Source of the DNA: Pirellulales bacterium
GTDB lineage: Bacteria; Planctomycetota; Planctomycetia; Pirellulales; JAEUIK01
Length of the DNA stretch: 64,000 bases
Assembly (NCBI GenBank): GCA_019694455.1
Contig: JAIBBY010000003.1
Location: 597 to 64,596, forward strand
Direction: 5' to 3'
Made by a program: the position numbers and the translations under genes. This document shows positions 11,801 through 26,580 of the stretch, piece by piece. The notes under the pieces are model-generated. The model searched no databases and had not been told where the DNA came from. It saw nothing but the letters and a program-made list of their open reading frames with translations. How positions within the stretch are numbered: position 1 is the first letter of the stretch; each line of letters begins with the position of its first letter.

Positions 11801-12334
11801 CTAAGAGCCGACGCCCGACATGGTCAAGGTGCTGTTCGTCGCCGCGAAGGTCTCGATGGCTCCTTCGGCCTCGATCGGAATAACATCGACCGCCTTGCCA
11901 TAAGGCGACGCCACGGCAAGTAGCTCACCCGCAAACGAAGCCACCGCCGTGGCTTCTAAGCGAACGCGGAAACGAAGATCGCCTTGCCGCGCGAGCAATT
12001 GCCGATTAGCGTCGCGCGACGACGACAATGCGTCAAGGCAGTGCAACGATTGACCATCCACCAGAGCGTTGAGCTGTTCCAGATCACAGGCCACATGCCA
12101 GCGACGCAACAACGTCGCTTCGTGGAGCCATCCTCTCAAGGCGCTCCCTAATCGACGTAGCTCTGCGTTGGTCGCCGCTTCTTGAATGTGAAGCCGTATC
12201 TCGCATTCCCTAGCGGGCACTTCGTCCGCCGCACGAGTGTCCGCCATTTGCGGCCGGAAGCATTGCCATAGTCGGACTGCTTGCCTTGCAAACAGCGCGA
12301 AAGAAGTTTGGATGCCCATACGAAGATTGCCCAA
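11801..12334 (-). CDS. Hypothetical protein (177 aa; the start may be the ATG at 12247)
   Basis: ORF with normal composition. No motif recognised. It is divergent from the small paralog gene at 12545. Confidence 0.45.
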   Translation of the reverse strand: MGNLRMGIQTSFALFARQAVRLWQCFRPQMADTRAADEVPARECEIRLHIQEAATNAELRRLGSALRGWLHEATLLRRWHVACDLEQLNALVDGQSLHCLDALSSSRDANRQLLARQGDLRFRVRLEATAVASFAGELLAVASPYGKAVDVIPIEAEGAIETFAATNSTLTMSGVGS

Positions 12335-12544
12335 GGCGATGTCAGCCGACTGGCGGCGGCGGCCATGCGGCCGCCGCCCGTCAGGTTCCTGCTCCCGCCA
12401 GCCTTACAAAATACTACAAATTTTGTTAAATTTCAACAAAATCAATATTCTGCTGTGAGACAATCGAAAGCTCAGCCTCGCGACATCTCTTGCCGTGACG
12501 CTGATTTCGAACGCGGCCACAGCGATAGTCCGGGAGGCAGTTCG

Positions 12545-12799
12545 GTGTCTTTTTCTGCTCGCTACAGTGTGTTGATTGTGAGCCTTGGCGGATGCGTGCA
12601 TAGCGTGGAAGCCTCGCAGGATTTCGCGTTAGCTGAGGCGATCGAATTCGCCTCCGCCTTCAATCGCGCCGTGGCAGATCGCGGCTATTTTGCCGCGGTG
12701 GCGCCGATTGAACACTCGACCGCTGCCGCGTTCTTGTCGCAAGTGCTGGACCAATGGCGGACCAATCCGCCGTTACCACCAACCGGCGATAGCGGCTAA
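12545..12799 (+). CDS. Small hypothetical protein, paralog of the 12811..13059 product
   Basis: The core 'RYSVLIVSLGGCVHSVEASQDFALAEAIEFASAFNRAVADRGYFAAVAP' aligns with 'RYAIVIVRADGALERVEEEVDLSLSEAVEFATAFNEGVGVAGYCAALVP'. A GTG start at 12545 gives a length matching the paralog. An alternative GTG lies at 12455. Confidence 0.45.
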   Translation: MSFSARYSVLIVSLGGCVHSVEASQDFALAEAIEFASAFNRAVADRGYFAAVAPIEHSTAAAFLSQVLDQWRTNPPLPPTGDSG

Positions 12800-12810
12800 C
12801 CGCCATCGGA

Positions 12811-13059
12811 TCACACCTCTCCGAATGGTTGAGATCGCTGCGGCAGCCCGGCGCTGGCGCCGTTGCAGAGTCGAACCATGTCGGCCGGCGTGCAGCGCGC
12901 CAGTCGCGGCACGAGCGCCGCGCAGTAACCGGCAACACCAACTCCCTCATTGAACGCCGTGGCAAACTCCACCGCTTCGCTCAACGACAAATCGACTTCT
13001 TCCTCCACTCGCTCCAACGCGCCGTCGGCGCGCACGATCACGATCGCATATCTAATCAC
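12811..13059 (-). CDS. Small hypothetical protein (82 aa), paralog of the 12545..12799 product
   Basis: ATG-initiated ORF. It is convergent with its paralog, and only 11 nt (12800-12810) separate the two stop codons. Confidence 0.5.
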   Translation of the reverse strand: MIRYAIVIVRADGALERVEEEVDLSLSEAVEFATAFNEGVGVAGYCAALVPRLARCTPADMVRLCNGASAGLPQRSQPFGEV

Positions 13060-13294
13060 GGCAGCCTCTCTGGTTCCCGTCCGGTCACCCGTCGCTGCGG
13101 CTGACCACCTTCAAATGGATGCGATCGGTCTAAACGCAATCGCCGTGCCGCGACAGCAAAGCCGCAGTTTTGCACGACATGCGGCAATTTTGCTATATGG
13201 AATGGGCGCCAGGCGCCGGCCAACGACAGCCGGAGTTGTGACGCCACAGCGCTAGTTGTATTCCATTGGGCCTGTCGTTGACGCCGCCGACGCG

Positions 13295-14881
13295 TTACTT
13301 CCAATTGCCGCTGACGCGAAGCCGCTTGAGTTTGGCATCGAGGGTCTGGTAGTGGTCAATGCCCAGCAGCCGGGCGGCCTCTGCTTTGACGCCATGCGCC
13401 TGCTCCATGGCGCTGCGCAGCAGGTGTCGCTGCAGTTCATCCATGGCATCTTGCAAGCTAAATCCATCGCCAAGCGGCTGCTCCCACGCTTCCGCGGGTC
13501 GGCGCGCGCTAAAATCGACATCGGCCACCGCGGCGGCGATGTCCTCACGCGAGATCACCTTTCCGGAGCACATGCCCGCCGCTTGCAACAACGCGTTATA
13601 GAGTTGACGCACGTTGCCGGGCCAGGGATACGTCTTGATGAACGTGCGGGCGGCGTCGGAGAGCGGCTTGTCCTGATAGCCTGGTTCGTCGGCGCGGAAT
13701 TGAACGTTCGCGCGTTCCAAGAGCGCGGCCGCCAGCGCTGGAATATCGGAACGTCGATCGCGCAAGGCCGGCACTTTGATGGTGACAACCGCCAATCGGT
13801 AGTACAGATCCTCGCGAAATCGCCCCTCGCCAATGGCGGCCATCAGATCGCGATTGGTGGCGGCGATCACGCGCACATTGCTGGCCAGGTCGCGTGTCCC
13901 TCCCACGCGGCGAAAGACACGTTCGCACAAGCCGCCATCATGTGGCGGCTGCAGCACGCGCAGCAGTTTGGTTTGCAGTGCCAGGTCGCATTCGCCCACT
14001 TCATCCAGGAACAGAGTGCCCCCGTTGGCTAACTCGAACGCGCCATGCCGAGCGCTATGGGCGCCGGTGAAAGCCCCCTTTTCATAGCCAAAGAGTTCCG
14101 ACTCCAACAGTTCCCGCGAGATCGCCGCGCAGTTCATTGCCACAAATGGCTGGTCGCGGCGCGCGCTCGAATCGTGAATCGCGCGCGCGAACAATTCCTT
14201 GCCCGAGCCGCTTTCGCCAAGTAGTAGCGTCGACAGATTGCGCATCGCCGCCCGATGCGCCAAGTCGACCGCCTTCTTCATGATGGGGCTGTCGCCAATG
14301 ATATGTTGAAACCCCGCCAACTCACTGGGGCTGGCCGACTGCTTCTCCAAGTGAGCGTCTGATCTGCGATACAACTCCGGCAAGTAATCGACGGTCAGGT
14401 TGAACGGAATCTCCGTGATCCATGCGTGGCCCTGGTACGTTTGATAGAACGTGGCCGGGTATTTGCTCTTTCCCAGCAGCACCCAGATCGCCGCCATCGC
14501 TGGCGTGCCAGGGCTGAGATGGATGCAGAGTTCTATTTCTCCCCAATCCTTGCGCCGACTCAACCGATCCAACTCGGCGTCGACAATTTTGTAGATCGCC
14601 TTGTAGTCGCTGGGATTGCGCAGACGCACATCGACGGCCTGCGCGGCGGGGCCGACCCAGCGGGCGAACTGTCGCCCTCGCTGATTGGAGTAGTTGTTGA
14701 GCAGTCGAATCTCGTCGAATGCGACTTCGCCGACCAGCGCCTTGATGGGCCCCTCATCGCCCGGTTGCGGAACGCCGCCGCCGACCTCGCGCAGAATTTC
14801 CTTGCGCTGAGTTTCCGAGAGCGTGGCGGCCAGTGACCGCAGGTCGTTGTAGCCAATCCAAGTCAACAGCACGCGTTTCAT
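13295..14881 (-). CDS. RtcR-family sigma-54-dependent transcriptional activator (CARF-like N-domain + AAA+ + Fis-type HTH)
   Basis: The N-terminus 'MKRVLLTWIGYNDL' and 'CIHLSPGTPAMAAIWVLLGKSKYPATFYQTY' resemble the E. coli RtcR N-domain ('LIHITTGTHVAQICWFLLAEARYLPARLIQS'). Walker A is 'GESGSGKELFARAIH', the sigma-54 contact loop is 'GAFTGA', and the C-terminal HTH is 'AARLLGIDHYQTLDAKLKRL'. Confidence 0.85.
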   Translation of the reverse strand: MKRVLLTWIGYNDLRSLAATLSETQRKEILREVGGGVPQPGDEGPIKALVGEVAFDEIRLLNNYSNQRGRQFARWVGPAAQAVDVRLRNPSDYKAIYKIVDAELDRLSRRKDWGEIELCIHLSPGTPAMAAIWVLLGKSKYPATFYQTYQGHAWITEIPFNLTVDYLPELYRRSDAHLEKQSASPSELAGFQHIIGDSPIMKKAVDLAHRAAMRNLSTLLLGESGSGKELFARAIHDSSARRDQPFVAMNCAAISRELLESELFGYEKGAFTGAHSARHGAFELANGGTLFLDEVGECDLALQTKLLRVLQPPHDGGLCERVFRRVGGTRDLASNVRVIAATNRDLMAAIGEGRFREDLYYRLAVVTIKVPALRDRRSDIPALAAALLERANVQFRADEPGYQDKPLSDAARTFIKTYPWPGNVRQLYNALLQAAGMCSGKVISREDIAAAVADVDFSARRPAEAWEQPLGDGFSLQDAMDELQRHLLRSAMEQAHGVKAEAARLLGIDHYQTLDAKLKRLRVSGNWK

Positions 14882-15522
14882 AAGACGCCAATCGATTTGT
14901 GGTTGTTCCAATTATTTTGTAATTGGAGACTCCTCGATTGGCAACTTGCGAGATCGGCAGGCGGTGCGCCGTTCAAGCAATGGCAACCGCTCGCCGTCAG
15001 GTGTCGGCTACTTGTATCATCTCCTTTTGTGCCGGCGTGCCGCGCCAGCGGACCTGTCGCCAACGCACTCGGCCCAGTAGCAATGTCGCGGACGTCCCAA
15101 AGCGCCAAGCATACGCTCGCTCCTGCGGCGGTATGATCAATGGTCGCGATCCGGTCCACTGCCGGCGACAGCGCAGCAATATCCGACCTGCCTGGAACTC
15201 TGAGCGCCACGCGCCAGACTCGCGCATTTTGAGTGAGCGACACCAACGACGCGAGCAAGCCGACTAACAGGAGCAGCGCCGCGAGCGATACCTTCGGCAG
15301 CCGCTGAGATACCCTTTGGGATGACCACCACAGCCCCATTCCCACCAAGACAATGGCGCCCCATTGCCAAGGGCGCAACTGCGGCAACTCGGGCGTGACG
15401 AGCGCCAAAGGGATCGCCACCGCCAGTAGTATTCCGCCCCAACGGACAAGCTCGAAGCCGCGCATTTGGATCCACGGCGCAAAGAGAACTGAATTAAACG
15501 GATGGGGAGGGATTCGATACAT
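14878..15522 (-). CDS. Hypothetical membrane protein, translationally coupled to the RtcR-like gene
   Basis: Its stop TGA overlaps the RtcR-like ATG (ATGA at 14878-14881). It has about 3 hydrophobic segments. The annotated first codons lie inside the 19-bp att repeat, so the true start is probably internal, for example the ATG at 15465. Confidence 0.4.
   Translation of the reverse strand: MYRIPPHPFNSVLFAPWIQMRGFELVRWGGILLAVAIPLALVTPELPQLRPWQWGAIVLVGMGLWWSSQRVSQRLPKVSLAALLLLVGLLASLVSLTQNARVWRVALRVPGRSDIAALSPAVDRIATIDHTAAGASVCLALWDVRDIATGPSALATGPLARHAGTKGDDTSSRHLTASGCHCLNGAPPADLASCQSRSLQLQNNWNNHKSIGVL
15499..15517. repeat. Distal att direct repeat (copy of the tRNA-Ser 3' end)
   Basis: 'cggatggggagggattcga' is identical to 22983..23001. 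Confidence 0.85.
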
Positions 15523-15542
15523 CGCGCCAAACGCGGGAAATA

Positions 15543-15767
15543 GTGGGTTTCTCGACCGAGGCGGCGCAAAATCCGGCGCATGACAAGCGCGAATCTCGGC
15601 AAGCCGTGGCGTTCAGCAAGCGGGCCATGCAAGCCGCTGGCGGTGGCAATCATCACGGTGACGACGTGCTCGACCCCGAGCTACGCAAGATCGTAGCGGC
15701 GTGGTCTACGCTGCCGGAGGGGATGAGGCGGGCCATGCTGGCCATCGTGGAAGCCAACGTGAAGTGA
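15543..15767 (+). CDS. Small hypothetical protein (island-borne)
   Basis: 74-aa ORF from a GTG start; an ATG alternative lies at 15627. No motif recognised. Confidence 0.35.
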   Translation: MGFSTEAAQNPAHDKRESRQAVAFSKRAMQAAGGGNHHGDDVLDPELRKIVAAWSTLPEGMRRAMLAIVEANVK

Positions 15768-15789
15768 ACAGGATCATCACGGCGACAAC

Positions 15790-15804
15790 TGGCACGCTGC
15801 TGGC
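15790..15804 (+). promoter_or_regulatory. Candidate sigma-54 (-24/-12) promoter, 'TGGCACGctgcTGGCg'
   Basis: It matches 10 of the 12 defined positions of TGGCACG-N4-TTGCW, with correct GG/GC spacing. It sits in the 129-156 nt gap (depending on the terS start chosen) upstream of the small terminase gene. Confidence 0.3.
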
Positions 15805-15923
15805 GATCGTCGATGGCGCAGGGATAGGGGGGGTAAAATCTCCACAACGTCAATGCGGGGGACCGCACCTCAAGCGCGCGCAAAAATTCCGGGGTTTTGA
15901 AGCTCACCACAAGGAACAGGTTT

Positions 15924-16334
15924 ATGGGCAAACGGGGACCGAAGCCGAAGCCAAGCGCGTTGCGAGTATTCGAGGGCAAGCCGGGGCATCATCGCCCCAT
16001 CGATCCGCGCGAACCGAAGCCAACAGGCAAGGCCCATGCGCCTGACTGGCTGGACGATGGCGCGCGGGAGGTGTGGTTGAGCACGGCGCCGGCGTTGGAA
16101 GCCATCGGCCTGTTGAGTGACCTGGACGTAAACGCCTTCGCCAACTATTGCCGGCTAGCGGCGCTGGCGCAGAGCGCCTTTGTCGAGAGCGACTTGCCGT
16201 TGTGGCTCAAACTGATTGCGGAGCAACGTCGGCACGGTGGCGACTTCGGACTGACGCCATCATCGCGCGTTGGTCTAAAGGTGGATGGCGCGCGCGAGCT
16301 AGATGAATTGGACGTGTTCAAACGGGGCGGTTGA
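15924..16334 (+). CDS. Phage terminase small subunit, P27 family
   Basis: 'MGKRGPKPKPSALRVFEGKPGHHRPIDPREPKP...APDWLDDGAREVW...DLDVNAFANYC' fits the P27-family N-terminal pattern. An AGGAA-like RBS precedes the ATG. Confidence 0.8.
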   Translation: MGKRGPKPKPSALRVFEGKPGHHRPIDPREPKPTGKAHAPDWLDDGAREVWLSTAPALEAIGLLSDLDVNAFANYCRLAALAQSAFVESDLPLWLKLIAEQRRHGGDFGLTPSSRVGLKVDGARELDELDVFKRGG

Positions 16335-16927
16335 GCGGCGGCCCGCTAGGTTCTTCCTGGCGCGTCAAGCCGCTGATGGCAACGGGAACGAGCATCTATC
16401 GGCGGCAGTCTTGCTTGCGAGCGCTCGCGTTTGCAGACCGTCTACGTTGTCAACGTCTACGGTATTCGCTCAAACGCGGGGAAAACGGCAATACCGTTGA
16501 CAAGCTGCTGCTGGCCGAGCGCGACGAAAACACGATCCGCAAGGACTTTCTGCCGAGTGAGGCTGTCGCCATCGGCGGCGCGCTTGAGGTGTACGAGCGG
16601 AAGAAAGCCAAAGAGCGGCAGCGAGAAGGCGGCAAGAAAGGTGGCGAATCCAAGGGAAAAGCTCTGGAAAATTTTGCCACACCTTCTCGCGCGACGGACA
16701 AGGTGGCGCAGGCGGTTGGGATGTCTCGACCGACCTACGAGAAGGCCAAGGCGGTGGTCGAGGCTGCGAAGGCGGACCCGAAGGCGTTCGGCGACTTGCC
16801 CAAGCTGATGGCCTACTCGATCATCAATCCGATGGCCCGCGCTTCTAGCGTCGTCAGTTCACGCCCTGGCGACGTGCTGGCCATGTCGGGGATGCCGTTC
16901 TCGGCATCGTCTAGCCGATCGGCCTGA
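16331..16927 (+). CDS. ParB-like/HTH protein, possibly degenerate
   Basis: 'ENTIRKDFLPSEAVAIG...AKERQREGGKKGG...DKVAQAVGMSRPTYEKAKAVVEAAK' resembles the post-nuclease and HTH part of phage ParB-like proteins. The N-terminal nuclease motifs are not recognisable and the C-terminal tail is low-complexity. Confidence 0.4.
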   Translation: MSGGPLGSSWRVKPLMATGTSIYRRQSCLRALAFADRLRCQRLRYSLKRGENGNTVDKLLLAERDENTIRKDFLPSEAVAIGGALEVYERKKAKERQREGGKKGGESKGKALENFATPSRATDKVAQAVGMSRPTYEKAKAVVEAAKADPKAFGDLPKLMAYSIINPMARASSVVSSRPGDVLAMSGMPFSASSSRSA

Positions 16928-17071
16928 GAGTTGGTCAGTAGTCCGAAGCGGCGTTAGAATCTCACGCGGGAAGCCGGGTAGCTCCTGGCGTAATTCGGTT
17001 CGGGCGCGCGGTGCTTCTACCTTCGCATGGCGCGCCTGAACCGGCCCGTTCTCACGCACGGAGGGTAGATC

Positions 17072-17671
17072 ATGACGCGCGCTCGCAAGAAACCTCTCTA
17101 CACCACGGAGAGAGTCAGCACGGGCATCTATGTGAACATCAAGACCGCCGCGAATACGACGGAGGGCTTGAAGGCGCTCATTGACGAATTCATGAAGGCG
17201 CAGAACGCAACATTCGACCTGCCCGCGCGGCTAGCCAAGATCGAGGAAGATGCGGCCCGAGTGCTCGACCTGCCGAAGAATGAGCGGCCCGACAGCGTGG
17301 CGGACGACGCGAGAAGAGCGCGGAGTGAGGCGAAGTGCGTCCGCATGGCGATGGAGGCGGGAGACGTGGCCCGAGCGGTCTGTCATGCCATCACGTTGGG
17401 GAGAATCGTAGAGCAGTGGAGCGTGCGTCCGTTTGAGCCGCTGGTGAGAGACGCGAAGAAAGCTCATGAAGGCAGGGCGAAGGGGGCGATTGCGACACGC
17501 GAGAAAGCGACGGCACGGCGGAAGGCGTGGCAATCTGACGTTGAGAGGCATATGGATGATCCTCACGTGAGTTACACCCTGGCGTGTAAGCGCGTGGCAT
17601 CAACTGCGGGGGTGTCTGAGAGCACGGTGCGGATTGGCACCACCAACCCCCGCCCGAAGCGCAAAGGCTAA
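17072..17671 (+). CDS. Hypothetical protein with a C-terminal HTH-like segment
   Basis: 199 aa. Contains 'SYTLACKRVASTAGVSESTVR'. A GGAGGG RBS lies upstream. Confidence 0.5.
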   Translation: MTRARKKPLYTTERVSTGIYVNIKTAANTTEGLKALIDEFMKAQNATFDLPARLAKIEEDAARVLDLPKNERPDSVADDARRARSEAKCVRMAMEAGDVARAVCHAITLGRIVEQWSVRPFEPLVRDAKKAHEGRAKGAIATREKATARRKAWQSDVERHMDDPHVSYTLACKRVASTAGVSESTVRIGTTNPRPKRKG

Positions 17672-17727
17672 GCCCCTGCGCGCAAGGGCTAAGCCCCTGC
17701 GCGAAATAGTTGCGCAAAGGCTAAGCC
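17659..17727 (+). repeat. Three phased 16-bp direct repeats GCGCAA(A/G)GGCTAAGCC
   Basis: Copies start at 17659, 17680 and 17712, giving spacings of 21 and 32 nt. The region also contains extra TGCGCA half-sites. Confidence 0.6.
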
Positions 17728-17826
17728 ATTGCGCATTCTGCGCCCTCATCACTGCCCGGCAGTGAGCCTACCGTGTAACCATGCGACCGCACTACGCGGG
17801 CGCGAACACTACACGGAGGCCATATC

Positions 17827-18048
17827 ATGCACGTCAACATCGCTCGCCCTGTCGCGCCACCCGTCGCCAAACTGCTGCTCACTGCGAAGGAGACAGCGGC
17901 GACTCTCGGCGTGTCGACCAAGACGCTGTATCTATGGGACCGCGACGGCACGCTGCCGGCGATCCACATCGCGGCCCGGTGCGTGCGGTACTCGCCTGCC
18001 GACCTGGCGCGCTTCATCGAAGGCAAGCGCAAGCCGCAGTCGGTCTAG
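17827..18048 (+). CDS. Excisionase/AlpA-type helix-turn-helix DNA-binding protein
   Basis: 73 aa. 'LLLTAKETAATLGVSTKTLYLWDRDGTLPAIHIAARCVRYSPADLARFI'. Confidence 0.75.
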   Translation: MHVNIARPVAPPVAKLLLTAKETAATLGVSTKTLYLWDRDGTLPAIHIAARCVRYSPADLARFIEGKRKPQSV

Positions 18049-18127
18049 ATCATCACTTTCTTCCCAACGAAAAAAGCCCGGCTGACCGCTGACGACGGCG
18101 CCGGGCAAAACCAAGGAGACGTTTTAC

Positions 18128-18658
18128 ATGGACGAGCGCAAATCTTTTCGTGACATTCTAAACGGACAAAATCAGCATGACGACATCGACGCGATATGGG
18201 ACAGCGCGGAAGCGACCCCCGATTACGCGCCGCTGCCCAAGGGGGAGTATGTCGCCCGTGTCGAGCATGGCGGAATCCATGTCGCCCGCAGCGGAACCAA
18301 GGGCTACAAGGTGACGTTCGTTGTCGTCGAGGGCGAGCACGCGGGGCGCAAACTGTGGCGCGATCACTGGCTGACTCGCGGCACGAAAGATCGCACCAAA
18401 GGCGAGCTAAACAAGTTGGGCATCATCACGGCGGCGCATCTCCGTCGCTCGCCACCCAAGGGCATCATCTGTCGGTTGCGGGTAGTGCTGCATCGCACTG
18501 ACGACGGCGCCGAATTCAACGAGGTGAAATCCTGCGAGGTGCTGCGGATCGAGACGCCGGCGCCCGACCCGTTCGCGCCGCCGGCTGAGTTACCGGCTGA
18601 CACGCCAGTCGAGACGCCAGATAGCGCGCAAGGCGACGCGCAGGAGGGCGAAGCATGA
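18128..18658 (+). CDS. DUF669-like phage protein
   Basis: 176 aa. 'PKGEYVARVEHGGIHVARSGTKGYKVTFVVVEGEHAGRKLW' matches the DUF669 pattern as I remember it. Confidence 0.6.
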   Translation: MDERKSFRDILNGQNQHDDIDAIWDSAEATPDYAPLPKGEYVARVEHGGIHVARSGTKGYKVTFVVVEGEHAGRKLWRDHWLTRGTKDRTKGELNKLGIITAAHLRRSPPKGIICRLRVVLHRTDDGAEFNEVKSCEVLRIETPAPDPFAPPAELPADTPVETPDSAQGDAQEGEA

Positions 18659-19620
18659 ACGCGGCGCCCTACGGCTTTCGGATCGTAGGGACGTGCCATG
18701 AGACGCGGCGACTGGTTACGGCCAGCGCCGCCCTCACGGCCTATGCCGCCTGCGATGAGCGCGCCCAAGTCGAGCGCGAAAGCTATCTCTCGGCGTTTCA
18801 GTACGGCGCCGAGTTTCGCCAGCATCTTGAAGCGACTGGCGCCACCAAGAATTATCGCGGCCCGTGCTGGGCGCCGTGGTTGTGGTTCGACATCGACCGC
18901 GAAGGGGACATCGAAGGCGCTCGCCGAGACGCGGCCCGGTTGTGTCTGACGCTGATCGAGCGCTTCGGTGTGTCCGACGATGCCTTGCCGATTTTCCTGT
19001 CGGGCGGCAAGGGGTTTCATGTCGGCCTGCCAACGTCACTATGGCGGCCTGAGCCAAGCGACCTATTCGACAAGCACGCGAAGCAACTGGCCGAGACATT
19101 AGCGGCATCGGCGCAAGTGCGCATCGACCGTGGAGTCTATGACAAAGTACGCGCGTTTCGAGCGCCGAACAGCCGGCATCCCAAGTCCGGCTTGCACAAG
19201 CGGCTGCTGGCGCTCGATCAACTGACGCACTGGAAAGCCGAAGCCATCGCGGAATTGGCCAAGGCGCCGGCACCGTTTGACTGGCCCGAACCGCCCGCGA
19301 TATGCGAGCGCGCAAAACTCGACTGGCGGGAGGCGGTCGCGGCGGTCAACGATCATCAGGCGGCCCATGCCGAGCGACGGCAGCACGGCGCGCCGGCCGC
19401 GCTCAACCGCTCGACCCTGGCGTTTATCCGTGATGGCGCAGACACGGGGGACCGGCATCGACTGCTATTCAGCGCGGCAGCAAATCTCGCCGAGTTCAAC
19501 TGCCCTAGTGAACTGGCTCACGCGCTACTTACGGAAGCCGGACTCGATAGCGGACTGCCGCCTAAGGAGGTGCGACGGCAAATCGATTGTGGCCTAAATC
19601 ACAAGGGAGACGCGCCATGA
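18655..19620 (+). CDS. Archaeo-eukaryotic-type (AEP) DNA primase/polymerase
   Basis: AEP motifs are present: 'WFDIDRE' (DxD), 'GGKGFHVG' (sxH) and 'VYDKVRAFRAPNSRHPKSG'. Confidence 0.75.
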   Translation: MNAAPYGFRIVGTCHETRRLVTASAALTAYAACDERAQVERESYLSAFQYGAEFRQHLEATGATKNYRGPCWAPWLWFDIDREGDIEGARRDAARLCLTLIERFGVSDDALPIFLSGGKGFHVGLPTSLWRPEPSDLFDKHAKQLAETLAASAQVRIDRGVYDKVRAFRAPNSRHPKSGLHKRLLALDQLTHWKAEAIAELAKAPAPFDWPEPPAICERAKLDWREAVAAVNDHQAAHAERRQHGAPAALNRSTLAFIRDGADTGDRHRLLFSAAANLAEFNCPSELAHALLTEAGLDSGLPPKEVRRQIDCGLNHKGDAP

Positions 19621-20558
19621 GTGATGCCAGTTATCGGACAGCCGCAGACATCTTCGGCGGTTGGCGAGAAGGTTTGTTGACCGGAACCAAGCCGATCTTG
19701 TACCCCATCGGTACAGGTGAACTAGCTCGCATCGAAATAGGCCCTGGATTGGTGACGTTGATCGGCGGCGCGCCGGGCGCCGGCAAGACCGCGTTTACTA
19801 TGCAATGCGTGGTTGATGCCTTGCGACTCACGCCTGAGTTGCGGGCGCTAGTTTGCAACGTCGAAATGTCGCCCGCGCTCTTGCTCGACCGGCAGCTATC
19901 GCGGCTGTCGGGCATCGACCTGGCTACGATTCGACAACGCGAATTTGTCGCCGAGCACGCCGAGCGGCTAGACGCGGCGATGGATGAGCTAGGCGCCATC
20001 GGCGAGCGATTGGCGTTTGTCCGCCCCCCGTACGCGCTCGACAACATCGCGCTGGCAATGGAAGCGACCGGCGCGCAGTTACTAGTGCTCGACTACATCC
20101 AGCGCATCGCGCCCCCTGGCGAGCATGGGGACCGTCGCGGCGCGGTCGATGCGTCGATGGGCTTCTTGCGGCAATTCGCCGAGAACCATACCGCCGTGAT
20201 GATCGTTGCGGCGGTCGCCCGCCAAAAAGACAGCAAGGGAAGATCGAGCTATGCGGCGGACGGCCTGAGTCTGGCATCGTTTCGAGAATCTTCGGAACTG
20301 GAATTTGGCGCTGACGACGCCTTCATTTTGGCGCCGGACCCCAAAGAGCACGGCAAGGTGCTGCTCAAGCATTTGAAAGCGCGGAACAGCGAACCGCGAG
20401 ATATCACGCTGACATTCGACCGCTGTTGTCAGCGATTCGAGACGACAGGCGGCTTTGAGCCGTGGGAACCGACCCCCCCCGGCAAGCTGCAAACCGCGCT
20501 GGCGGAGGCATGGAACGCCACGGCGCCCGCTGCTGACAACATGGAGGATGAACAATGA
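19617..20558 (+). CDS. DnaB/RepA-like replicative ATPase (RecA-fold helicase domain)
   Basis: Walker A 'GGAPGAGKTAF' and Walker B 'LLVLDYIQ'. The start overlaps the primase stop as ATGA. Confidence 0.75.
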   Translation: MSDASYRTAADIFGGWREGLLTGTKPILYPIGTGELARIEIGPGLVTLIGGAPGAGKTAFTMQCVVDALRLTPELRALVCNVEMSPALLLDRQLSRLSGIDLATIRQREFVAEHAERLDAAMDELGAIGERLAFVRPPYALDNIALAMEATGAQLLVLDYIQRIAPPGEHGDRRGAVDASMGFLRQFAENHTAVMIVAAVARQKDSKGRSSYAADGLSLASFRESSELEFGADDAFILAPDPKEHGKVLLKHLKARNSEPRDITLTFDRCCQRFETTGGFEPWEPTPPGKLQTALAEAWNATAPAADNMEDEQ

Positions 20559-20968
20559 GCCGATGGAAGCTGACTGGCTGCGAAGTGCTGCCGAAAATGC
20601 ACGCCATGCGATCGAAGCCGCCCGCCAATGGGCACAGCAACCCCGTAGTGAACGGCGCGAGCGGCAAGCCGACTGACCGCCACTATGGACGATTCCAAAC
20701 GCTGAATCACTTCGTCGATTTTACGATGAGCAAGTTGTCGCGCGCCGAGGTGGCCGTTTGGATGATCTTGTTCCGCGACACGAAGAAAGATGGAACCGCC
20801 CGCGTGGCGCAAGCCGACATGGCCCGCCGCGCTGGCGCCGATGACCGCACAATGCGCCGCGCACTGCGGCGGTTGATCGGATTGCGGCTGGTGAGCGTGG
20901 TCCGCCAAGGCGGCTTGGGTCGCGGTCCATCGACCTATCGAGTGAACACTAACCCCCCCAGTTGGTAG
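20555..20968 (+). CDS. Winged-helix/HTH protein (candidate replication initiator or regulator)
   Basis: 137 aa. The start overlaps the helicase stop as ATGA. 'AQADMARRAGADDRTMRRALRRLIGLRLVSVV' is wHTH-like. Confidence 0.5.
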   Translation: MSRWKLTGCEVLPKMHAMRSKPPANGHSNPVVNGASGKPTDRHYGRFQTLNHFVDFTMSKLSRAEVAVWMILFRDTKKDGTARVAQADMARRAGADDRTMRRALRRLIGLRLVSVVRQGGLGRGPSTYRVNTNPPSW

Positions 20969-21080
20969 CGGACATTGGTGTCCAAAGTAGGCGGACATTT
21001 TGCGCCTTTTCTCGCGGACACCCATGTCCTATGTCCCATACAGGGACCATAAGTGCGTCCGCCCTTTAGTGGGGCGGACA
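20968..21080 (+). repeat. GCGGACA iteron cluster (candidate island ori)
   Basis: GCGGACA occurs at 20968, 20991, 21014 and 21074; the first three are 23 nt apart. Inverted TGTCC copies are also present, and an inverted near-copy 'gcgtccgcc' lies at about 21054-21063. Confidence 0.55.
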
Positions 21081-21106
21081 CAGAAACAGAAAGGAAGCGC
21101 GTCATC

Positions 21107-21571
21107 ATGGCCGACAGCATCCAAGATCAACTAGCCCGGTTGTGGGCTGCCAGCATGCCGCCAGTTCCCTTGCCGCCAGTTGCCAAGCCGGTGACAAAGC
21201 CGAAGGGGTCTGCGGAGTCTACGCCGAACCCTTCGCGTTTTTGCTCGCCAACGGAAGCGACTGCGGCGCCACCTGCGCCGGCGCGGACATTCGCTTCGGT
21301 GGGGCTGCCTCATCGCTGCCGCTGTGCAATCGGCGACTGGCAAGATCGACCTGCCGACAATCGGCCTGGCTGGTTGCGGACTGATTGCCGCTGCTGCGGT
21401 CGCTTCATTGGCTACCGACCGACGAAGTTGACGGCCCTGTCGGTCGAGTTTGAAGAGCGCGCGGCGATTCGGGAATTTGACGGCCAGTTGCCCCGAGACG
21501 ACGCGGAACGGTTCGCGTGGTTTGAAACTGGCCCTCATCCGCTGGATTCGACGCCACAGAATCGCGTCTAA
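21107..21571 (+). CDS. Hypothetical Cys-rich protein
   Basis: Contains 'CRCAIGDWQDRPADNRPGWLRTDCRCCGRF', which is zinc-ribbon-like. The ORF may start earlier, at 21053. Confidence 0.4.
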   Translation: MADSIQDQLARLWAASMPPVPLPPVAKPVTKPKGSAESTPNPSRFCSPTEATAAPPAPARTFASVGLPHRCRCAIGDWQDRPADNRPGWLRTDCRCCGRFIGYRPTKLTALSVEFEERAAIREFDGQLPRDDAERFAWFETGPHPLDSTPQNRV

Positions 21572-21706
21572 CGCGATATCTCGACCGTCATCGACCAATG
21601 TATCGACCGACTGAGCCGGCCCTTAGAACGCAAATACGGTTTCCGCTTATTTCCGAACCGCATTACGATGCGAGTTCCACGCAACGAGAAGGAGGAGATT
21701 TTCGAC

Positions 21707-23050
21707 ATGGCCAGCATATCGAAGGACAAGAGCGGTGGCGGGTTCCGCATCCAATTTATGATCGGCGGCGAGCGGCGGGCCATTCGCTTAGGTAAGTGCG
21801 CCAAGGCGGACGCGCGACACGTGGCGGACCACGTGCAAGCCCTGGCCACGGCGAAGCTGTACGGCACGCCCCTGGCCCAGCAAACGGCATCGTGGTTGAC
21901 GGCGATTCACCCCCAGTTGCAAGAGAAGTTGGTTCGCGCGGGATTGATCGAGGCGGAGACTCCGCAAGCCACGGTGACGCTAGGCGAGTTCATGGCCGAC
22001 TACATCGCCAGTCGATGCGACGTGAAGCCCGCGACAAAGGAAATCTGGCGACAAGGTGAAATGGGGCTGGTGACATTCTTCGGGGCGAACAAGCCGTTAG
22101 GGAAAATCTCGCCGGGCGATGCGGACCAATACAAGTTGCACTTGATCGGGAAGCAGCTCGCCCCGATGACAGTGCGGAAGCGGTTGCAATTCGCCAAGAT
22201 GATTTTCCGCGCGGCGGTGCGGCGCCGGTTAATCACGGAAAGCCCATTCGCTGATGTTTCCATCAAGGCGTCGGCGCCCAACCGCTGGCACTTCATCAGC
22301 CAAGAGGATACAGCCAAGCTGCTGGCGGCCTGCTCAAACATCCATTGGCGCGTGATTGTGACGTTGGCCCGCTATGGCGGCCTGCGCTGCGCTAGCGAAG
22401 TGCTGAGTCTGCGGTGGCAAGATATCAACTGGTCGGAAAATCGAATCATGGTGCAATCACCCAAGACGGAACATCACCCCGGCAAAGAGCAGCGCGTCAT
22501 TCCCCTGTTTCCCGAGCTACTGCCGGTGCTGCTGGAAGCGGCTGAGTTAGCTCCCGAGGGCGCCGTCTACGTGGTCGATGAGAAGATGCGGAAGGCGGCC
22601 CTTGGTCCTAGCGGCTGGAAGAATTGCAATTTGAGTACCACATTCAAGAAGATCATCGCCCGCGCTGGCTTGACCCCCTGGAAGCGACCGTTTCACAACC
22701 TGCGAAGTTCTCGACAAACAGAGTTGGCCGAGCGGTTCCCGTCGCACGTCGTTTGCGACTGGCTGGGCAACAGCGAAGACATTGCGCGGAAGCACTATTT
22801 GCAGGTGACCGACCAGCACTTCGCGGACGCCATTGGCACGCCCAAAAAGGTGGCTCAAAACCCGGCGCAGTCGGTGCCGGAAAGTGGCGAAAATGAGACG
22901 AAACCAAACAGGGGGGTGCCCCTAAATGCGCCGCTTTTGCCCCCTATTTCTTGTCGTAACTCCTTACTACGTAAGGACTTAGCGGATGGGGAGGGATTCG
23001 AACCCCCGGTGGGCTTGCGCCCACTGCAGTTTTCAAGACTGCCGCCTTAG
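21707..23050 (+). CDS. Tyrosine-type site-specific integrase
   Basis: Contains 'ARYGGLRCASEVLSLRW', 'HNLRSSRQTE' and the catalytic Tyr context 'ARKHY'. The 3' end runs 68 nt into the oppositely oriented tRNA-Ser gene. Confidence 0.9.
   Translation: MASISKDKSGGGFRIQFMIGGERRAIRLGKCAKADARHVADHVQALATAKLYGTPLAQQTASWLTAIHPQLQEKLVRAGLIEAETPQATVTLGEFMADYIASRCDVKPATKEIWRQGEMGLVTFFGANKPLGKISPGDADQYKLHLIGKQLAPMTVRKRLQFAKMIFRAAVRRRLITESPFADVSIKASAPNRWHFISQEDTAKLLAACSNIHWRVIVTLARYGGLRCASEVLSLRWQDINWSENRIMVQSPKTEHHPGKEQRVIPLFPELLPVLLEAAELAPEGAVYVVDEKMRKAALGPSGWKNCNLSTTFKKIIARAGLTPWKRPFHNLRSSRQTELAERFPSHVVCDWLGNSEDIARKHYLQVTDQHFADAIGTPKKVAQNPAQSVPESGENETKPNRGVPLNAPLLPPISCRNSLLRKDLADGEGFEPPVGLRPLQFSRLPP
22983..23001. 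repeat. Proximal att direct repeat (3' 19 nt of tRNA-Ser)
   Basis: Identical to 15499..15517. Confidence 0.85.
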
Positions 23051-23069
23051 ACCACTCGGCCACCCATCC
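22983..23069 (-). tRNA. tRNA-Ser (anticodon UGA), CCA not encoded
   Basis: Manual cloverleaf. Acceptor GGATGGG/CCCATCC with discriminator G. Anticodon stem GCAGT/ACTGC with loop CTTGAAA. Long variable arm GTGGGC-GCAA-GCCCAC. T-loop TTCGAAT. Confidence 0.9.
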
Positions 23070-23398
23070 CGGTCCTCAACTCGACGTCCACGCGAATTTG
23101 CAAGTTACTTCGCAAACTACGCCCTCGGATCATCAGGGGCAGGTTGTATATTCCCAAGACATTTTTTGATGGAATGTCTGCTAGCCCACGCCATTTGCAG
23201 ACAGCATCAATCCACTCGGCGTCGAATCAGTAGAGGATTATAGCTCACAGGCAAGTGGTCGAGGACTCCGGCTTGGGCATCGCGATTCGCTAATCACGCT
23301 GCGGAACCCGGTTGACGGCCAGCGGCCGGCCTGTTACGAAAAGGGGCTCAAATCGGCCAGTCGAAGCACGCGAACCACCAAAATTAGAGGTCTGCGCC

Positions 23399-23587
23399 AT
23401 GAGCGGAATCAGCGACCGGATGCAGGAAATCAAGCGCCGTCGTCATCGCCGTCAAAAGCTCAAGAAGCTCGCCGGCCGCCTCAAGAAGGCCACCGCCTCC
23501 GAAAAGCTAATAATTGCCGAAAAGGTGCGCCGCCTTACACCGGGCGCCGAAATCGTGCTCGAGCGCTGGGGACTGGTCAAGAAGTAG
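23399..23587 (+). CDS. Small basic hypothetical protein (62 aa)
   Basis: ATG-initiated 'MSGISDRMQEIKRRRHRRQKLKK...'. No motif recognised. Confidence 0.5.
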   Translation: MSGISDRMQEIKRRRHRRQKLKKLAGRLKKATASEKLIIAEKVRRLTPGAEIVLERWGLVKK

Positions 23588-23608
23588 CGAGTCCGTGACA
23601 GCCACCGA

Positions 23609-25558
23609 CTACTGTCGGTCTTCGCGGGCGATATACAGCACGCGCTGCGGCGTCTCGGGGGGCAGCCCTTTCTCTGCCACGCTCAAGTAACCCATCCGCG
23701 CCAAGCCGCGCGCGGGGTCTTTCAGTTCGGCCAATCTGGCCTCGACCGTCTGAACCAAGCCGGGCGCAGCACGATGCCGCGCGGCGCCGCTCTTGGCCAG
23801 ATCGTTCCAGAGCCGGTTGAGGCTTTCAATCATCGCCTCAGTCACCTCCTCATCGGTAGCGACATGTCCTAAGTTGTCGCTCACGCACGCTCGTGCGGCG
23901 TCTCTCCAGCCAAGAACCGCCAACCGTGCGAGCGGGTCGATCCAATCGGCGTCCGCGAACAGCAGGTTTAAGTACGCGATGGTTCGCTCCGTAGAGGCGC
24001 CAGTTGTTGGAAAACGCCGAATGAACACCAGGACCGGCGGGCGCAGCGCGTCGTCGTAGACCAAGGTGTCGTTGGCCGTTGGCAGGTCGAGATTGAAGGC
24101 CGGAAAACGCCGTTCCCCCAACTGACTATGGACGCGAACGACCAATAACTCTGAGGGTTGATCGAGGACGACTCTCTCCAAATTCGCATCATCGGCAGCG
24201 AAATGAAAGTCGCTCGATCCGGCCAGGAGCGAACGACTCACGAACCCTAACTCTGGAAGCACGAGCAAATGATTGAATTGCTCGGTAGATACGAGCGCCA
24301 TGAGCGGCGCTGTTCGCTCGATCGCGCGCGCGGCGGCAATGTTCGATTGATGATCGACTAGGTACTCACGGCTGCGCTCCAAGACGCCCACGCCGCGCGC
24401 GGATTGCACATTCAACCGCGGGAGAAGGCGACCGTCGTAATTCGCGATTCCCCAGACAATGGCGATAACCGGCACGACCCACAGGCGCCGATAACCGGCT
24501 TGTTGCAGCGACGTCGCGGCAACCAAAAACAACAGGGGGACCGTGATCGTCAGGTAGCGGCACTCAAAAAACACGGGCAGCACCAGCGCCGTGTTGATCG
24601 CAATCATCAGCCAACCGAGGCCGAGGATAGGCGCCTTGTCGCTCCATCGCTGAAAAACTAGCTTGAGCCTTTGACTAAAGCTCGCCGCGGCGCCAACTGT
24701 CGCCGAATAGTCGTTCGCCAAAGCAAGCAAGGTGGCGGCTATTGCGAAGACCAACAAGGCAAGCCAATCAGGCGCCGAGCAGATCCACAGCCACAAGTCT
24801 CCCTCGCGCGGCCAATGCATGCGCGTGCTGGCATTGCCCCCCAGCACAACGACCGACATCAGGCACGCGGCCAGCGCAAGATGGATCACCGCCGCCCGCG
24901 CCACACGGCGCCGGCGATCAGCCGGTCGGACCAAGCCCCACACGAGCAGCAGCAGTAAATACCATCCCACGGCAAGACTGAGCAGAAACGCCGAATTCTT
25001 TAGGAAGAACGCGGCGACCGTGCAAACCGCGGCGGCGCCGTAGCGCTCGCGCGTCGCCAGCAAAACGCCAATGGCGACGCACGCCAATGCTGGCATATCG
25101 AGTCCGATCATGTCGATCTGCACGCTGAACAGCGGGGTGAGAGCCGTTGCCAGGCAGATCAACGTCGCCATCCCTGGAGACAATTGATCGCGGGCCATGA
25201 TCCAAACGGCCGTCAACGCCACCGCAGCACAGCCAAAAACGAACAGGCGGTAGAGCACAATCGCCGCGGTTATCGACGCGGCGTATTGTTGCAAGATGCC
25301 GACGACGCCCGGCAAGATCGTGGTGAGGTATGCCCTGGGGCCTCCTTTGTCTCCGTGCAGATCATTGGCCAGCGCGCGATAGTCAAAATCATGCTGCGCC
25401 AGATAAGCGGCCTCGGTCCAAAGACCATACGCCTGCTCGACGTAAGGCGGCGAGGAGAGCATCGACCAGCGCGCGATCAAGATCAGCGCGAAAGTCAGCG
25501 CCCAAACGGCCAGCCACTGCGCGCGCCTCTCATTCAAGCAAGTCGCTCCGGCCGTCAT
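23609..25558 (-). CDS. Polytopic membrane protein, GT-C-like (ArnT/PMT-style) putative glycosyltransferase
   Basis: 649 aa. About 10 or more hydrophobic helices in the first ~400 aa, followed by a soluble C-terminal domain. The functional assignment is tentative. Confidence 0.6.
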   Translation of the reverse strand: MTAGATCLNERRAQWLAVWALTFALILIARWSMLSSPPYVEQAYGLWTEAAYLAQHDFDYRALANDLHGDKGGPRAYLTTILPGVVGILQQYAASITAAIVLYRLFVFGCAAVALTAVWIMARDQLSPGMATLICLATALTPLFSVQIDMIGLDMPALACVAIGVLLATRERYGAAAVCTVAAFFLKNSAFLLSLAVGWYLLLLLVWGLVRPADRRRRVARAAVIHLALAACLMSVVVLGGNASTRMHWPREGDLWLWICSAPDWLALLVFAIAATLLALANDYSATVGAAASFSQRLKLVFQRWSDKAPILGLGWLMIAINTALVLPVFFECRYLTITVPLLFLVAATSLQQAGYRRLWVVPVIAIVWGIANYDGRLLPRLNVQSARGVGVLERSREYLVDHQSNIAAARAIERTAPLMALVSTEQFNHLLVLPELGFVSRSLLAGSSDFHFAADDANLERVVLDQPSELLVVRVHSQLGERRFPAFNLDLPTANDTLVYDDALRPPVLVFIRRFPTTGASTERTIAYLNLLFADADWIDPLARLAVLGWRDAARACVSDNLGHVATDEEVTEAMIESLNRLWNDLAKSGAARHRAAPGLVQTVEARLAELKDPARGLARMGYLSVAEKGLPPETPQRVLYIAREDRQ

Positions 25559-25900
25559 GGAATGGATACGGAACGCCGCAAGTCCATCCGGGCCGGCACA
25601 TCGACCGGGAACGACCCAGATGAAACTTCGCTAGCAGTTGCCGGCCAAGGCTGAAGCGGATGCCGCAGCGCGGTTGATCGAAGAGCTGGCATGAAACTCG
25701 CGAATGCTTGCGCCGCAAGCGATGCTTAAGATAGCGCATGCTCCGCAATGAACCACCACGGATCACCCACAATCGGCGGAGCAGGCGTTGATGATTCGAT
25801 GATAAACCGCCACCCGGCCCCACGCTATCGCGCGCGTCGTCCACAGGCCATCCGGCGCCTGATTCGGTGACAAAAAGACGCCTTCGCGGGTGCCGGCGCA

Positions 25901-25938
25901 TAAAAAACAGCCTGCCGCCGGATCAATCTCCGGCGTCA
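25901..25938 (-). terminator. Candidate intrinsic terminator of the 25998..26249 gene
   Basis: On the minus strand, a CGCCGGA/TCCGGCG stem (25916-25935) is followed by GCAGGCUGUUUUUUA. Confidence 0.4.
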
Positions 25939-25997
25939 AGCTGCAGCGAGTGTTGGCAAACGACTTTCGGTGAGCTTCTGGAGCGGCCGCGGCGCCG

Positions 25998-26249
25998 TTA
26001 GGCGGGGCGGCGATAATGCTGGTAGGCCAGGATCACTTCGTAAAGATCGGTCGAGATGGTGATCTCGTCTTCCATGAAGTCGGCCAACCAGGCGCGTTGA
26101 TGCCGTGCGGCGTCGACGAGCATCGGCAGCACATCGCTCAATTGCAAGGTGGCCGTGGAGGGATTCGCCTTCGATCCGGCGGCGGCTGGAGCGCTCGTTT
26201 CCGGACCATAGTAAACACGCAATTGGCTTCTTGCCATGAGTGGACGCAT
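25998..26249 (-). CDS. Small hypothetical protein (83 aa)
   Basis: ORF with normal composition. A terminator-like hairpin lies downstream. Confidence 0.5.
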   Translation of the reverse strand: MRPLMARSQLRVYYGPETSAPAAAGSKANPSTATLQLSDVLPMLVDAARHQRAWLADFMEDEITISTDLYEVILAYQHYRRPA

Positions 26250-26477
26250 CCTTACGTCGAGGAACCTTAATGCCCGCCGCCGGGCGGCAAGCGTACTTCC
26301 CCCTCGCGCACTTGTTATCGACCGGCAGGGTCGTGCGGGTTTGATCTATTTGTCACGGCATGCCGTTTTTTCGCAGAGTCGGCGGCTTGCCAATTGATCT
26401 TGACTCAGCGCAGTTTGCCAATTGTGGGACCGCGAGCTGAACGACGTCGGATCGACCGCCGCGATAGTCCGCGCAGC

Positions 26478-26506
26478 TTGACACCCTCCCGACAACCCCC
26501 TAGATT
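26478..26506 (+). promoter_or_regulatory. Candidate sigma-70 promoter for tex
   Basis: TTGACA (26478-26483), a 17-nt spacer, then TAGATT (26501-26506). It lies about 75 nt upstream of the tex ATG. Confidence 0.4.
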
Positions 26507-26580
26507 GCGAAACGGTTAATCCCCAACGAGACGTTCTCATTGGCTCGTTGGTCCACCGTCCCACTCGGCTCGTCCGACAT

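Follow-up and report, generated by a model that had tools for sequence, protein, structure and literature searches.

A 7.5-kb element integrated in tRNA-Ser(UGA) of a Pirellulales bacterium: a probable phage satellite with an integrase gene split by integration

As defined for SatelliteFinder, phage-inducible chromosomal islands (PICIs) have a core of five functional classes, one of which, the capsid-morphogenesis gene, true PICIs of the SaPI-like 'Type B' do without (de Sousa et al. 2023, PMC10085698). Tycheposons of Prochlorococcus (Hackl et al., 10.1101/2020.12.28.424599) form a family united by common integration and replication modules, while VEIMEs (virion encapsidated integrative mobile elements) and PICMIs (phage-inducible chromosomal minimalist islands) are very small integrative satellites whose small terminase (TerS) is most similar to that of co-occurring phages and which are packaged as concatemers (10.1101/2022.07.26.501625; PMC10803314). 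In Myxococcus phage Mx8, the attachment site attP lies within int, and integration at a tRNA gives this gene a new, shorter 3' end and yields an integrase of different activity (PMC6070905, citing Tojo 1996 and Magrini 1999). The subject of this study is a 7.5-kb island in a 64-kb stretch of contig JAIBBY010000003.1 from a Pirellulales bacterium, referred to here as the window. The island is read as a small integrative, self-replicating element of a family that extends across Planctomycetota, within which this copy most probably acts as a phage satellite, packaged via its own TerS by an HK97-like helper on which it would depend, a reading that is held with moderate confidence.

The boundaries of the island are fixed by an empty site. 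tRNA-Ser(UGA) ends at its 3' side in the 19-mer CGGATGGGGAGGGATTCGA, which is found exactly twice in the window, at the attL core and at the attR core within the intact tRNA (Table 1), and does not occur in 100 shuffles, even with up to 2 mismatches allowed. A 365-kb JGI contig (L128; 3300061720, Ga0498930_0000047), reached via a cluster look-up of a right-flank protein, is about 94% identical to the window at the DNA level on either side of the island. In this contig, the equivalents of window positions 12000-15517 and 22983-27000 are contiguous and the 7,484 bp of the island are missing; its attB (12405-12527) contains one copy of the core, which ends an intact tRNA-Ser(UGA) and joins the two flanks. 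The element is therefore absent from a close relative and sits between 19-bp att cores in the 3' end of the tRNA, so that the tRNA-bounded island proposed in the first-pass annotation of this DNA is borne out both by the exact repeat and by occupancy polymorphism. A relative this similar without the island implies that the insertion is recent or that the element can still be lost. The predicted attP junction reads ...CTACGTAAGGACTTAG-CGGATGGGGAGGGATTCGA-TACATCGCGCCAAACGCGG..., and the predicted attB junction ...GGGAAATGAAAAAAACAA / ...GAACTGAATTAAA-CGGATGGGGAGGGATTCGA-ACCCCCGGTGGGC....

Between the two cores, all credible open reading frames (ORFs) lie on the + strand, as had been described at first pass. 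Profiling of these ORFs against Pfam, PHROGs and NCBIfam shows that four of the five PICI core classes (PMC10085698) are represented and none of the forbidden ones, the assignment being made by function and not with the SatelliteFinder profiles. An integrase with att repeats lies at one end; the regulation module (alpA, merR or stl homolog) is represented by a helix-turn-helix (HTH) protein that matches HTH_17, MerR_1 and phrog_66; a primase-replicase with adjacent origin is present at the functional level, as an AEP primase, a helicase, a winged-HTH (wHTH) protein and candidate iterons; and the island has its own TerS (Terminase_4 and phrog_83), a homolog of which stands in normal phage context. 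Tail, holin and other virion genes are absent, and the claim that the island lacks capsid, portal, large terminase, tail and lysis genes agrees with the profile searches, which detected none among its ORFs. The fifth class, a gene for capsid morphogenesis or size redirection, has no Pfam, PHROGs or NCBIfam match in any ORF, a gap shared with the Type B PICIs. The excisionase-type HTH protein, DUF669, primase, helicase and integrase named at first pass all have profile matches, that of the primase being below the Pfam threshold and at 3e-16 in PHROGs; the wHTH and ParB-like matches are weak (Table 1). The ATGA overlaps that had been noted between primase, helicase and wHTH genes are real and extend to the DUF669/primase pair; genes called independently on a metagenome contig of identical sequence show them as well.

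The island thus shares with PICIs and SaPIs the plan of a small site-specific island with an integrase, an AlpA/MerR-type regulator, a primase and helicase replicon, an adjacent iteron origin (a candidate here) and its own TerS, without tail, lysis or virion genes and with a hijack module that evolves independently of the core. The PICI-like architecture claimed for it stands as far as four of the five core classes are concerned, but not for gene order, co-directional layout and core protein families, which differ from those of described PICIs. In PICIs, int is followed by divergent regulators, whereas in the island all genes are co-directional and int comes last, reading into the tRNA. Its replicon, made up of DUF669, AEP primase, DnaB-like helicase and wHTH, is without close relatives among phages or plasmids, its size of 7.5 kb contrasts with the 10-20 kb given for PICIs in the tycheposon preprint (10.1101/2020.12.28.424599), and it further departs from PICIs in its lack of a capsid-morphogenesis gene, in the accessory status of terS within its family and in its host phylum, which is new; induction by a helper is putative. 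A P4-like satellite was considered and rejected, as PHROGs and Pfam gave no match to psu, delta, sid, epsilon or an alpha-type primase-helicase and the AEP primase is separate from the DnaB-like helicase. Assignment to the capsid-forming PICIs (cfPICIs) fails on the absence of major capsid, portal, protease and connector genes from the window. By gene homology or layout, the island is not a member of the PICIs, the cfPICIs or the P4 group.

By analogy, the island would work most like PICI-like tycheposons or VEIMEs. With tycheposons it shares, by architecture only, a tyrosine recombinase at a tRNA 3' end combined with a replication module and a variable module: in both cases the recombinases are sorted by target tRNA (including Ser-tga), the direct repeats are partial tRNAs, and a variable arm contains either cargo or a 'PICI-like' module of terS or major capsid protein. 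It differs from them in phylum, in its smaller size, in that nutrient-acquisition cargo is not seen and in having an int that is split by attP. VEIMEs and PICMIs are similar in being very small and in encoding an integrase, AlpA and sometimes terS; these were defined from virion DNA or experiment in Vibrionaceae and marine bacterioplankton, whereas the island was defined from sequence.

The case for packaging centres on TerS. The P27 small terminase reported at first pass matches Terminase_4 above the gathering score as well as phrog_83. It has three close homologs, of which one (in L116, 81% identity) occupies the same island context, and the ratio of non-synonymous to synonymous substitutions (dN/dS) against that copy is 0.13, so that terS is under purifying selection. 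The nearest TerS outside an island (57% identity, equal length, N- and C-termini conserved) opens an HK97-like module of TerS, TerL, portal, protease and capsid genes followed by head-tail genes, and more distant homologs also open phage packaging modules of this kind. A TerS hidden Markov model (HMM), used for the detection of diverged copies, finds P27-type TerS in five further relatives of the island (L010, L030, L062, L063 and L075). As in the window, the distance of the gene from attL is 0.4-1 kb in every case.

The family to which the island belongs was delimited with the AEP primase as marker gene. More than 1,900 homologs at 55-65% identity were found, the named ones being from Planctomycetota, for instance Pirellulales, and in a scan of one genome per species the primase is present in 203 species genomes, nearly all of them Planctomycetota and some with two copies; cultured carriers are Adhaeretor mobilis, whose element (L025) measures 9.5 kb and occupies tRNA-Leu, and Aeoliella straminimaris (L067). 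In 80 related loci (L001-L080) fetched for neighbourhood comparison, the DUF669, primase, helicase and wHTH genes are conserved in 69-80 of the 80. Clustering of the ORFs shows recurrent neighbours on both sides, namely an HTH_17/AlpA gene and the unknown gene f8 upstream, and an HTH_3 gene (f10) and a tyrosine integrase, either of the window's type or of a longer type of 560-650 aa, downstream; f8 and f10, which most relatives hold, are missing in the window copy. In 50 of the 80 loci the integrase gene is followed by a tRNA on the minus strand, these tRNAs having at least 13 amino-acid specificities. For 26 loci and the window, a copy of 14-57 nt of the tRNA 3' end could be placed upstream, which delimits elements of 6.5-12.5 kb (median 8.3 kb). 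Homologous islands, whose search in relatives had been proposed as a check, are therefore found, and none has a virion module. An identical marine relative occurs in several samples, including TARA Oceans (L118-L122), and carries between the wHTH gene and int a gene for an SRA_ScoMcrA-domain protein that may serve in defence as cargo.

Phage-type int, xis and terS, and a primase that matches a PHROG family, could also be what deletion has left of a full temperate phage, but this is exceedingly improbable. None of the 27 bounded elements contains portal, tail or lysis genes and none exceeds 12.5 kb, too little to accommodate a virion module. Close relatives of the primase are lacking among 72,556 plasmids and among 50,697 phage records, where identity reaches at most 34% over at most 55% of the length. 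On these grounds the deletion-remnant reading is rejected; in addition, the empty site reveals a clean unit without scar. An intact temperate prophage was also considered and rejected, given the 7,484-bp unit, the size range of the family and the lack of virion and lysis modules.

The region from attL to the AlpA gene is variable. Most of the 79 ORFs found there in the 26 relatives are unknown, with proteins of 400-470 aa recurring among them, the recognisable cargo including an N6 methylase, a T5orf172 nuclease, a HEAT-repeat protein and SRA_ScoMcrA; the left-arm proteins of the window had no tblastn match in the 80 related loci. Packaging genes recur in this arm too. The TerS HMM also matches a 9.6-kb element in tRNA-Ser(UGA) (L034, 2325-11957), in which the same replication module accompanies HNH, P27 TerS and HK97-type major head protein genes; its int is distal to the tRNA and not split, and a portal gene was looked for in it and not found. 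The left arm of another relative (L057, 5667-7745) encodes a 693-aa gpA-like large terminase (GpA_nuclease, 5e-22) and no TerS. Between islands, the TerS proteins are 25-42% alike, as against 55-65% for the replication modules, which indicates that the hijack cassette was captured repeatedly from different phages. This pattern parallels terS capture in PICIs (PMC10085698), VEIMEs (10.1101/2022.07.26.501625) and PICI-like tycheposons (10.1101/2020.12.28.424599).

The same variability admits a different account, in which the island is an integrated plasmid-like (integrative-replicative) element that is transferred independently of capsids and is not transduced, its terS being cargo that would act for the host or the element as an anti-phage decoy by disturbing phage packaging. 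The conserved core of the family would suit this account, since it consists of integration and replication only, as would the varied cargo of the left arms, a terS that comes and goes between close relatives and the near absence of the family from IMG/VR. However, the left arms showed no relaxase, oriT-type or conjugation gene, terS lies invariably at the same end of the element, and siblings with HNH, TerS and capsid genes, or with a large terminase, are hard to explain as decoys alone. PADLOC identified no defence system in the island, its match in the window copy being limited to a generic HTH. Plasmid-like transfer is therefore considered rather unlikely.

Several observations nevertheless weigh against a satellite packaged by a helper. 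TerS scores 36.9 bits against TIGR01558, below the NCBIfam curated cut-off of 45.6. The terS gene is accessory, being present in about 7 of 28 bounded elements (about a quarter), and the closest relative (L087, with a primase 87% identical) lacks it at the same position; some three quarters of the family have no recognisable packaging gene, from which it follows that satellite behaviour is not a family-wide property. The window copy has no identifiable HNH gene, cos/pac site or capsid-size gene, and the window contains no helper prophage. Unless packaged in multimeric form, a 7.5-kb unit would leave an HK97-type head badly underfilled, for which concatemer packaging as in VEIMEs and PICMIs is, by analogy, the likely solution. 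In 2.9 million IMG/VR contigs, the primase profile has a single match (L091) with neighbours that are not phage-like, a lone locus that is uninformative on encapsidation. Lastly, no direct evidence was found of excision, replication or encapsidation, and neither the attP nor the attB junction of the window itself was found in JGI metagenome contigs. Of the first-pass claim of a helper-dependent satellite rather than a prophage, the discrete mobile island and the exclusion of a prophage are upheld, while helper dependence stays conjectural and terS proves accessory.

The missing attP junction would also be expected of an inactive relic, an element once mobile that is now fixed in the lineage and decaying. 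The GC content of the island (0.617), which equals that of the window, and the absence of f8 and f10 fit such a history. Against it, every ORF is intact and the translationally coupled overlaps are kept, purifying selection acts on terS, the two att cores do not differ, the detached 3' segment of int is still in frame with its motif, and a relative of about 94% identity lacks the island; decay is for these reasons regarded as quite improbable.

A degenerate scan of JGI metagenomes for att junctions returned 24 tRNA-Ser junctions, none of which equals attB or attP of the window; pairs such as L105/L114 and L093/L107 hint at occupancy polymorphism for other islands. A terminal-overlap test over all fetched contigs found no circular ones. 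The metagenome of the empty-site contig also contains L087, whose element is inserted at a tRNA-Ala-type site and is without terS. Beside the tRNA-Ser core, on the int side, about 30 nt (TACGCAACTCGTTGCTACGAAAGGACTTAG-like, with a small hairpin) are conserved at many tRNA-Ser junctions with related integrases (L092-L115); the stretch is also present in L096, although no window-type integrase is detectable there, and may represent an arm sequence of att or else some feature that lies downstream of the tRNA.

Neither the size of the family nor the following property of its integrase had been recognised in the first-pass annotation. In the integrated state, the int ORF passes through attR and reaches a stop 15 codons on, inside the antisense tRNA, giving 447 aa. 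When the element is circularised in silico, the frame instead runs via the core into the left end of the island and gains 82 codons, ending in ...AWSTLPEGMRRAMLAIVEANVK before the stop, so that the excised form is predicted to have 514 aa (15518-15767 joined with 21707-23001). What had been taken for a small ORF at 15543-15767 is thus no separate gene, but the detached 3' end of int. The arrangement recurs throughout the family: in 26 of 27 reconstructed circles, whichever the integrase type or the target tRNA, no stop interrupts the int frame for at least 50 codons past the core (median 69), compared with 0 and 5 of the 27 for the other two frames (medians 2 and 5). The tails have in common a C-terminal motif, LxxLAxxLxxLsxxxRxxLaxLL or a variant containing W, and an HMM of this motif also matches the left ends of further loci. 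On the reconstructed circle, terS sits directly downstream of int.

Both forms of the protein are present in public data. The integrase family of the window comprises 14,735 cluster representatives; among the 150 nearest integrases, at least 78 end in a translated antisense tRNA (G-F/L-E-P...; median 445 aa) and at least 13 have the tail contiguous (median 494 aa). On contigs that encode full-length Int (L124-L127), int is followed by element genes and not by a tRNA; these are other element types without the window primase, so they back the split-int reading and not excision of the window family. The island has the Mx8-type arrangement, with the attP core inside the int ORF and a 3' end that is replaced on integration, and a difference in activity between the two forms is suggested by analogy. 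Unlike in Mx8, a full temperate phage, the split int is found here in mini-elements, in two integrase clades and with at least 13 tRNA specificities, and tblastn of the reconstructed Int against phages gave no match to Mx8 at 1e-5. With a split int across the family, the 'reversible covalent modification of int' described for Mx8 is no longer confined to one phage but extends to an integrase clade of very large size, and the translated antisense tRNA that ends half of the nearest database integrases constitutes an annotation problem.

Two side observations concern the same region. A 629-aa integrase with contiguous tail motif and no tRNA after it is encoded on an 18.8-kb contig of a metagenome-assembled genome (L022, 4475-6364), which may be an element caught in the non-integrated state. 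In f9-type elements (e.g. L005, L007, L030, L055 and L074), the int tail just past the core encodes a doubled 'CTxxCTS' peptide, derived from a short direct DNA repeat (GTCTGCAC-like) that may mark integrase arm-binding sites.

For the satellite reading, the following cycle can be proposed. A trigger, probably infection or induction of a helper, would lift repression at three palindromic operators and switch on the co-directional operon of xis/alpA, DUF669, primase, helicase, wHTH, Zn-ribbon ORF and int. Int and the HTH_17 protein would then excise the element, and excision would rejoin int with its 3' segment, so that the full-length protein predicted from sequence replaces the shorter prophage form; by analogy with Mx8, the split gene may act as a reversible switch of integrase activity between the two states. 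The wHTH protein as initiator, the helicase, the AEP primase and DUF669 would replicate the circle from the GCGGACA iterons. The island TerS would bind island DNA and recruit the large terminase of the helper, and island DNA, which with a unit of 7.5 kb would probably be multimeric, would enter helper capsids and thereby new cells, where full-length Int would integrate the element at the tRNA.

A wider proposal, tentative and falling somewhat short of an even chance, is that the family as a whole represents a phylum-wide, undescribed group of satellites (present in at least 203 species genomes, with over 1,900 variants of the primase and no fewer than 13 tRNAs as targets) with a private DUF669/AEP primase/DnaB-like helicase/wHTH replicon. 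In this group, cassettes (P27 TerS; HNH, TerS and capsid; gpA-like TerL) would be swapped to match local helper phages, and the direction of recombination would be controlled by an integrase gene that is completed only upon excision. A literature search found no paper that describes phage satellites in Planctomycetota or ties satellites or PICIs to the phylum, in line with what the first-pass annotation had supposed. Planctomycetota are believed to be genetically hard to work with, and to our knowledge they have no well-studied phages. A common tRNA-integrating mini-element with exchangeable packaging cassettes would, if the proposal is true, offer a handle on networks of phages, hosts and satellites in planctomycetes. 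The cultured carriers (the Adhaeretor mobilis strain being HG15A2) make the idea experimentally accessible, and the compact replicon with its candidate iteron origin and the tRNA-specific integrases are possible parts for genetic tools.

Table 1. Features of the island and its integration target, in window coordinates.
Feature	Position	Strand	Evidence
attL core, 19 nt, repeats the tRNA-Ser 3' end	15499-15517		Exact repeat; single copy joins the flanks in L128
Detached 3' end of int	15518-15767	+	In-silico circular junctions; C-terminal motif conserved in relatives and uninterrupted in full-length Int
Noncoding stretch upstream of terS	15768-15923	+	Alignments
Small terminase TerS, P27 family, 136 aa	15924-16334	+	Pfam Terminase_4 E=1.7e-9 (above gathering score); phrog_83 2e-25
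198-aa ORF, weak ParB-like similarity (residues 59-148)	16331-16927	+	phrog_12047 4e-6 alone
orf199, orphan, HTH-like C-terminus	17072-17671	+	3' end abuts palindromes
Three 23-bp near-palindromes GCGCAAAGGCTAAGCCCCTGCGC	17659-17734		Repeat search; spacing 21 and 32 nt
HTH_17/MerR-like excisionase or AlpA-type regulator, 73 aa	17827-18048	+	Pfam HTH_17 2.4e-10; MerR_1 1e-4; phrog_66 4e-11
DUF669 protein (SSB-like in PHROGs)	18128-18658	+	Pfam 9.3e-7; phrog_378/7778; in 73/80 related loci
AEP-type primase, conserved C-terminal helical domain	18655-19620	+	phrog_16345 3e-16; Pfam sub-threshold (E=5e-3)
DnaB/RepA-like helicase, 313 aa from ATG at 19617	19617-20558	+	DnaB_C 6.9e-16; phrog_19 2.7e-22; in 79/80 loci
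wHTH protein, replication-initiator-like	20555-20968	+	Weak: HTH_36 3e-3; phrog_18020/391 'replication initiation O-like'; in 69/80 loci
Candidate origin, GCGGACA x4 at 20968, 20991, 21014 and 21074	20968-21080	+	23-nt phasing; plus inverted TGTCC copies
Cys-rich (Zn-ribbon-like) ORF	21107-21571	+	phmmer matches; gene call on L086
Tyrosine integrase Int, 447 aa integrated	21707-23050	+	Phage_integrase 2.3e-12; phrog_1 3.5e-38
tRNA-Ser(UGA), integration target	22982-23069	minus	ARAGORN; Rfam tRNA 60.6 bits
attR core, within the intact tRNA	22983-23001		Exact repeat; L128 empty site

Regarding the remaining genes, the ParB-like ORF has no Pfam, NCBIfam or PADLOC match, and its N-terminal part is 37% identical in L087. 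For orf199, no family match was obtained in Pfam, PHROGs, NCBIfam or PADLOC, and 5.8 billion proteins contain one homolog, which is distant and encoded in an unrelated island; its HTH-like C-terminus makes it a candidate repressor, and no Stl-like repressor was identified among the island ORFs. In relatives, the position equivalent to the HTH_17 gene is occupied by family f7, which matches HTH_17/Phage_AlpA. The Cys-rich ORF is without family match in Pfam, PHROGs and NCBIfam. Its C-terminal domain is found in relatives either as a separate small ORF (f19; e.g. L007, 12552-12776) or fused to the C-terminus of long primases (L048, L055, L037, L073 and L077), and these fusions point to a functional tie to replication. 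Rfam, promoter and terminator scans across the island returned the tRNA alone.

The likely iteron origin can be placed at the GCGGACA repeats, which follow immediately after the wHTH gene; the repeats upstream of the HTH_17 gene look more like operators. Within 250 nt past the wHTH gene, a 6-mer repeated at least five times is found in 35% of loci compared with 3% of random background windows, and the motif differs among the elements of the 80 loci (GGACA, GGAAC, GTGACA, GGTGAA), as would suit an iteron origin that the wHTH protein recognises. The three near-palindromes lie between orf199 and the xis-replication operon, the first overlapping the orf199 stop codon, in a layout like that of an operator array, which makes them candidate operators. 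Upstream of terS, a noncoding core of about 75 nt (15826-15900, GGGGGGGTAAAATCTCCACAACGTCAATGCGGGGGACCGC...GGGGTTTT) shows identity of about 90% or higher to L087 and L116 and is more conserved there than adjoining coding DNA. In L087 it precedes genes other than terS, and L116 has an apparent second, partial copy. The stretch has no Rfam match, nothing similar was found upstream of phage terS genes, and it was matched in none of the 80 genome loci, being confined to these two close relatives; a promoter/operator and a pac/cos site are the candidates for its role.

Outside the island, the window encodes ordinary host metabolism. The host gene on the left flank (14878-15522, minus strand) has a longest ORF that begins within the island, across attL, whereas the start of the same gene in the empty-site contig lies 36 nt from the tRNA, so that insertion has replaced its upstream region. 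Further to the right, a giant ORF of 3,628 aa (30670-41556, minus strand) has a counterpart in the empty-site contig that is of the polyketide-synthase type, with ketoacyl-synt, Acyl_transf_1, PP-binding and KR domains.

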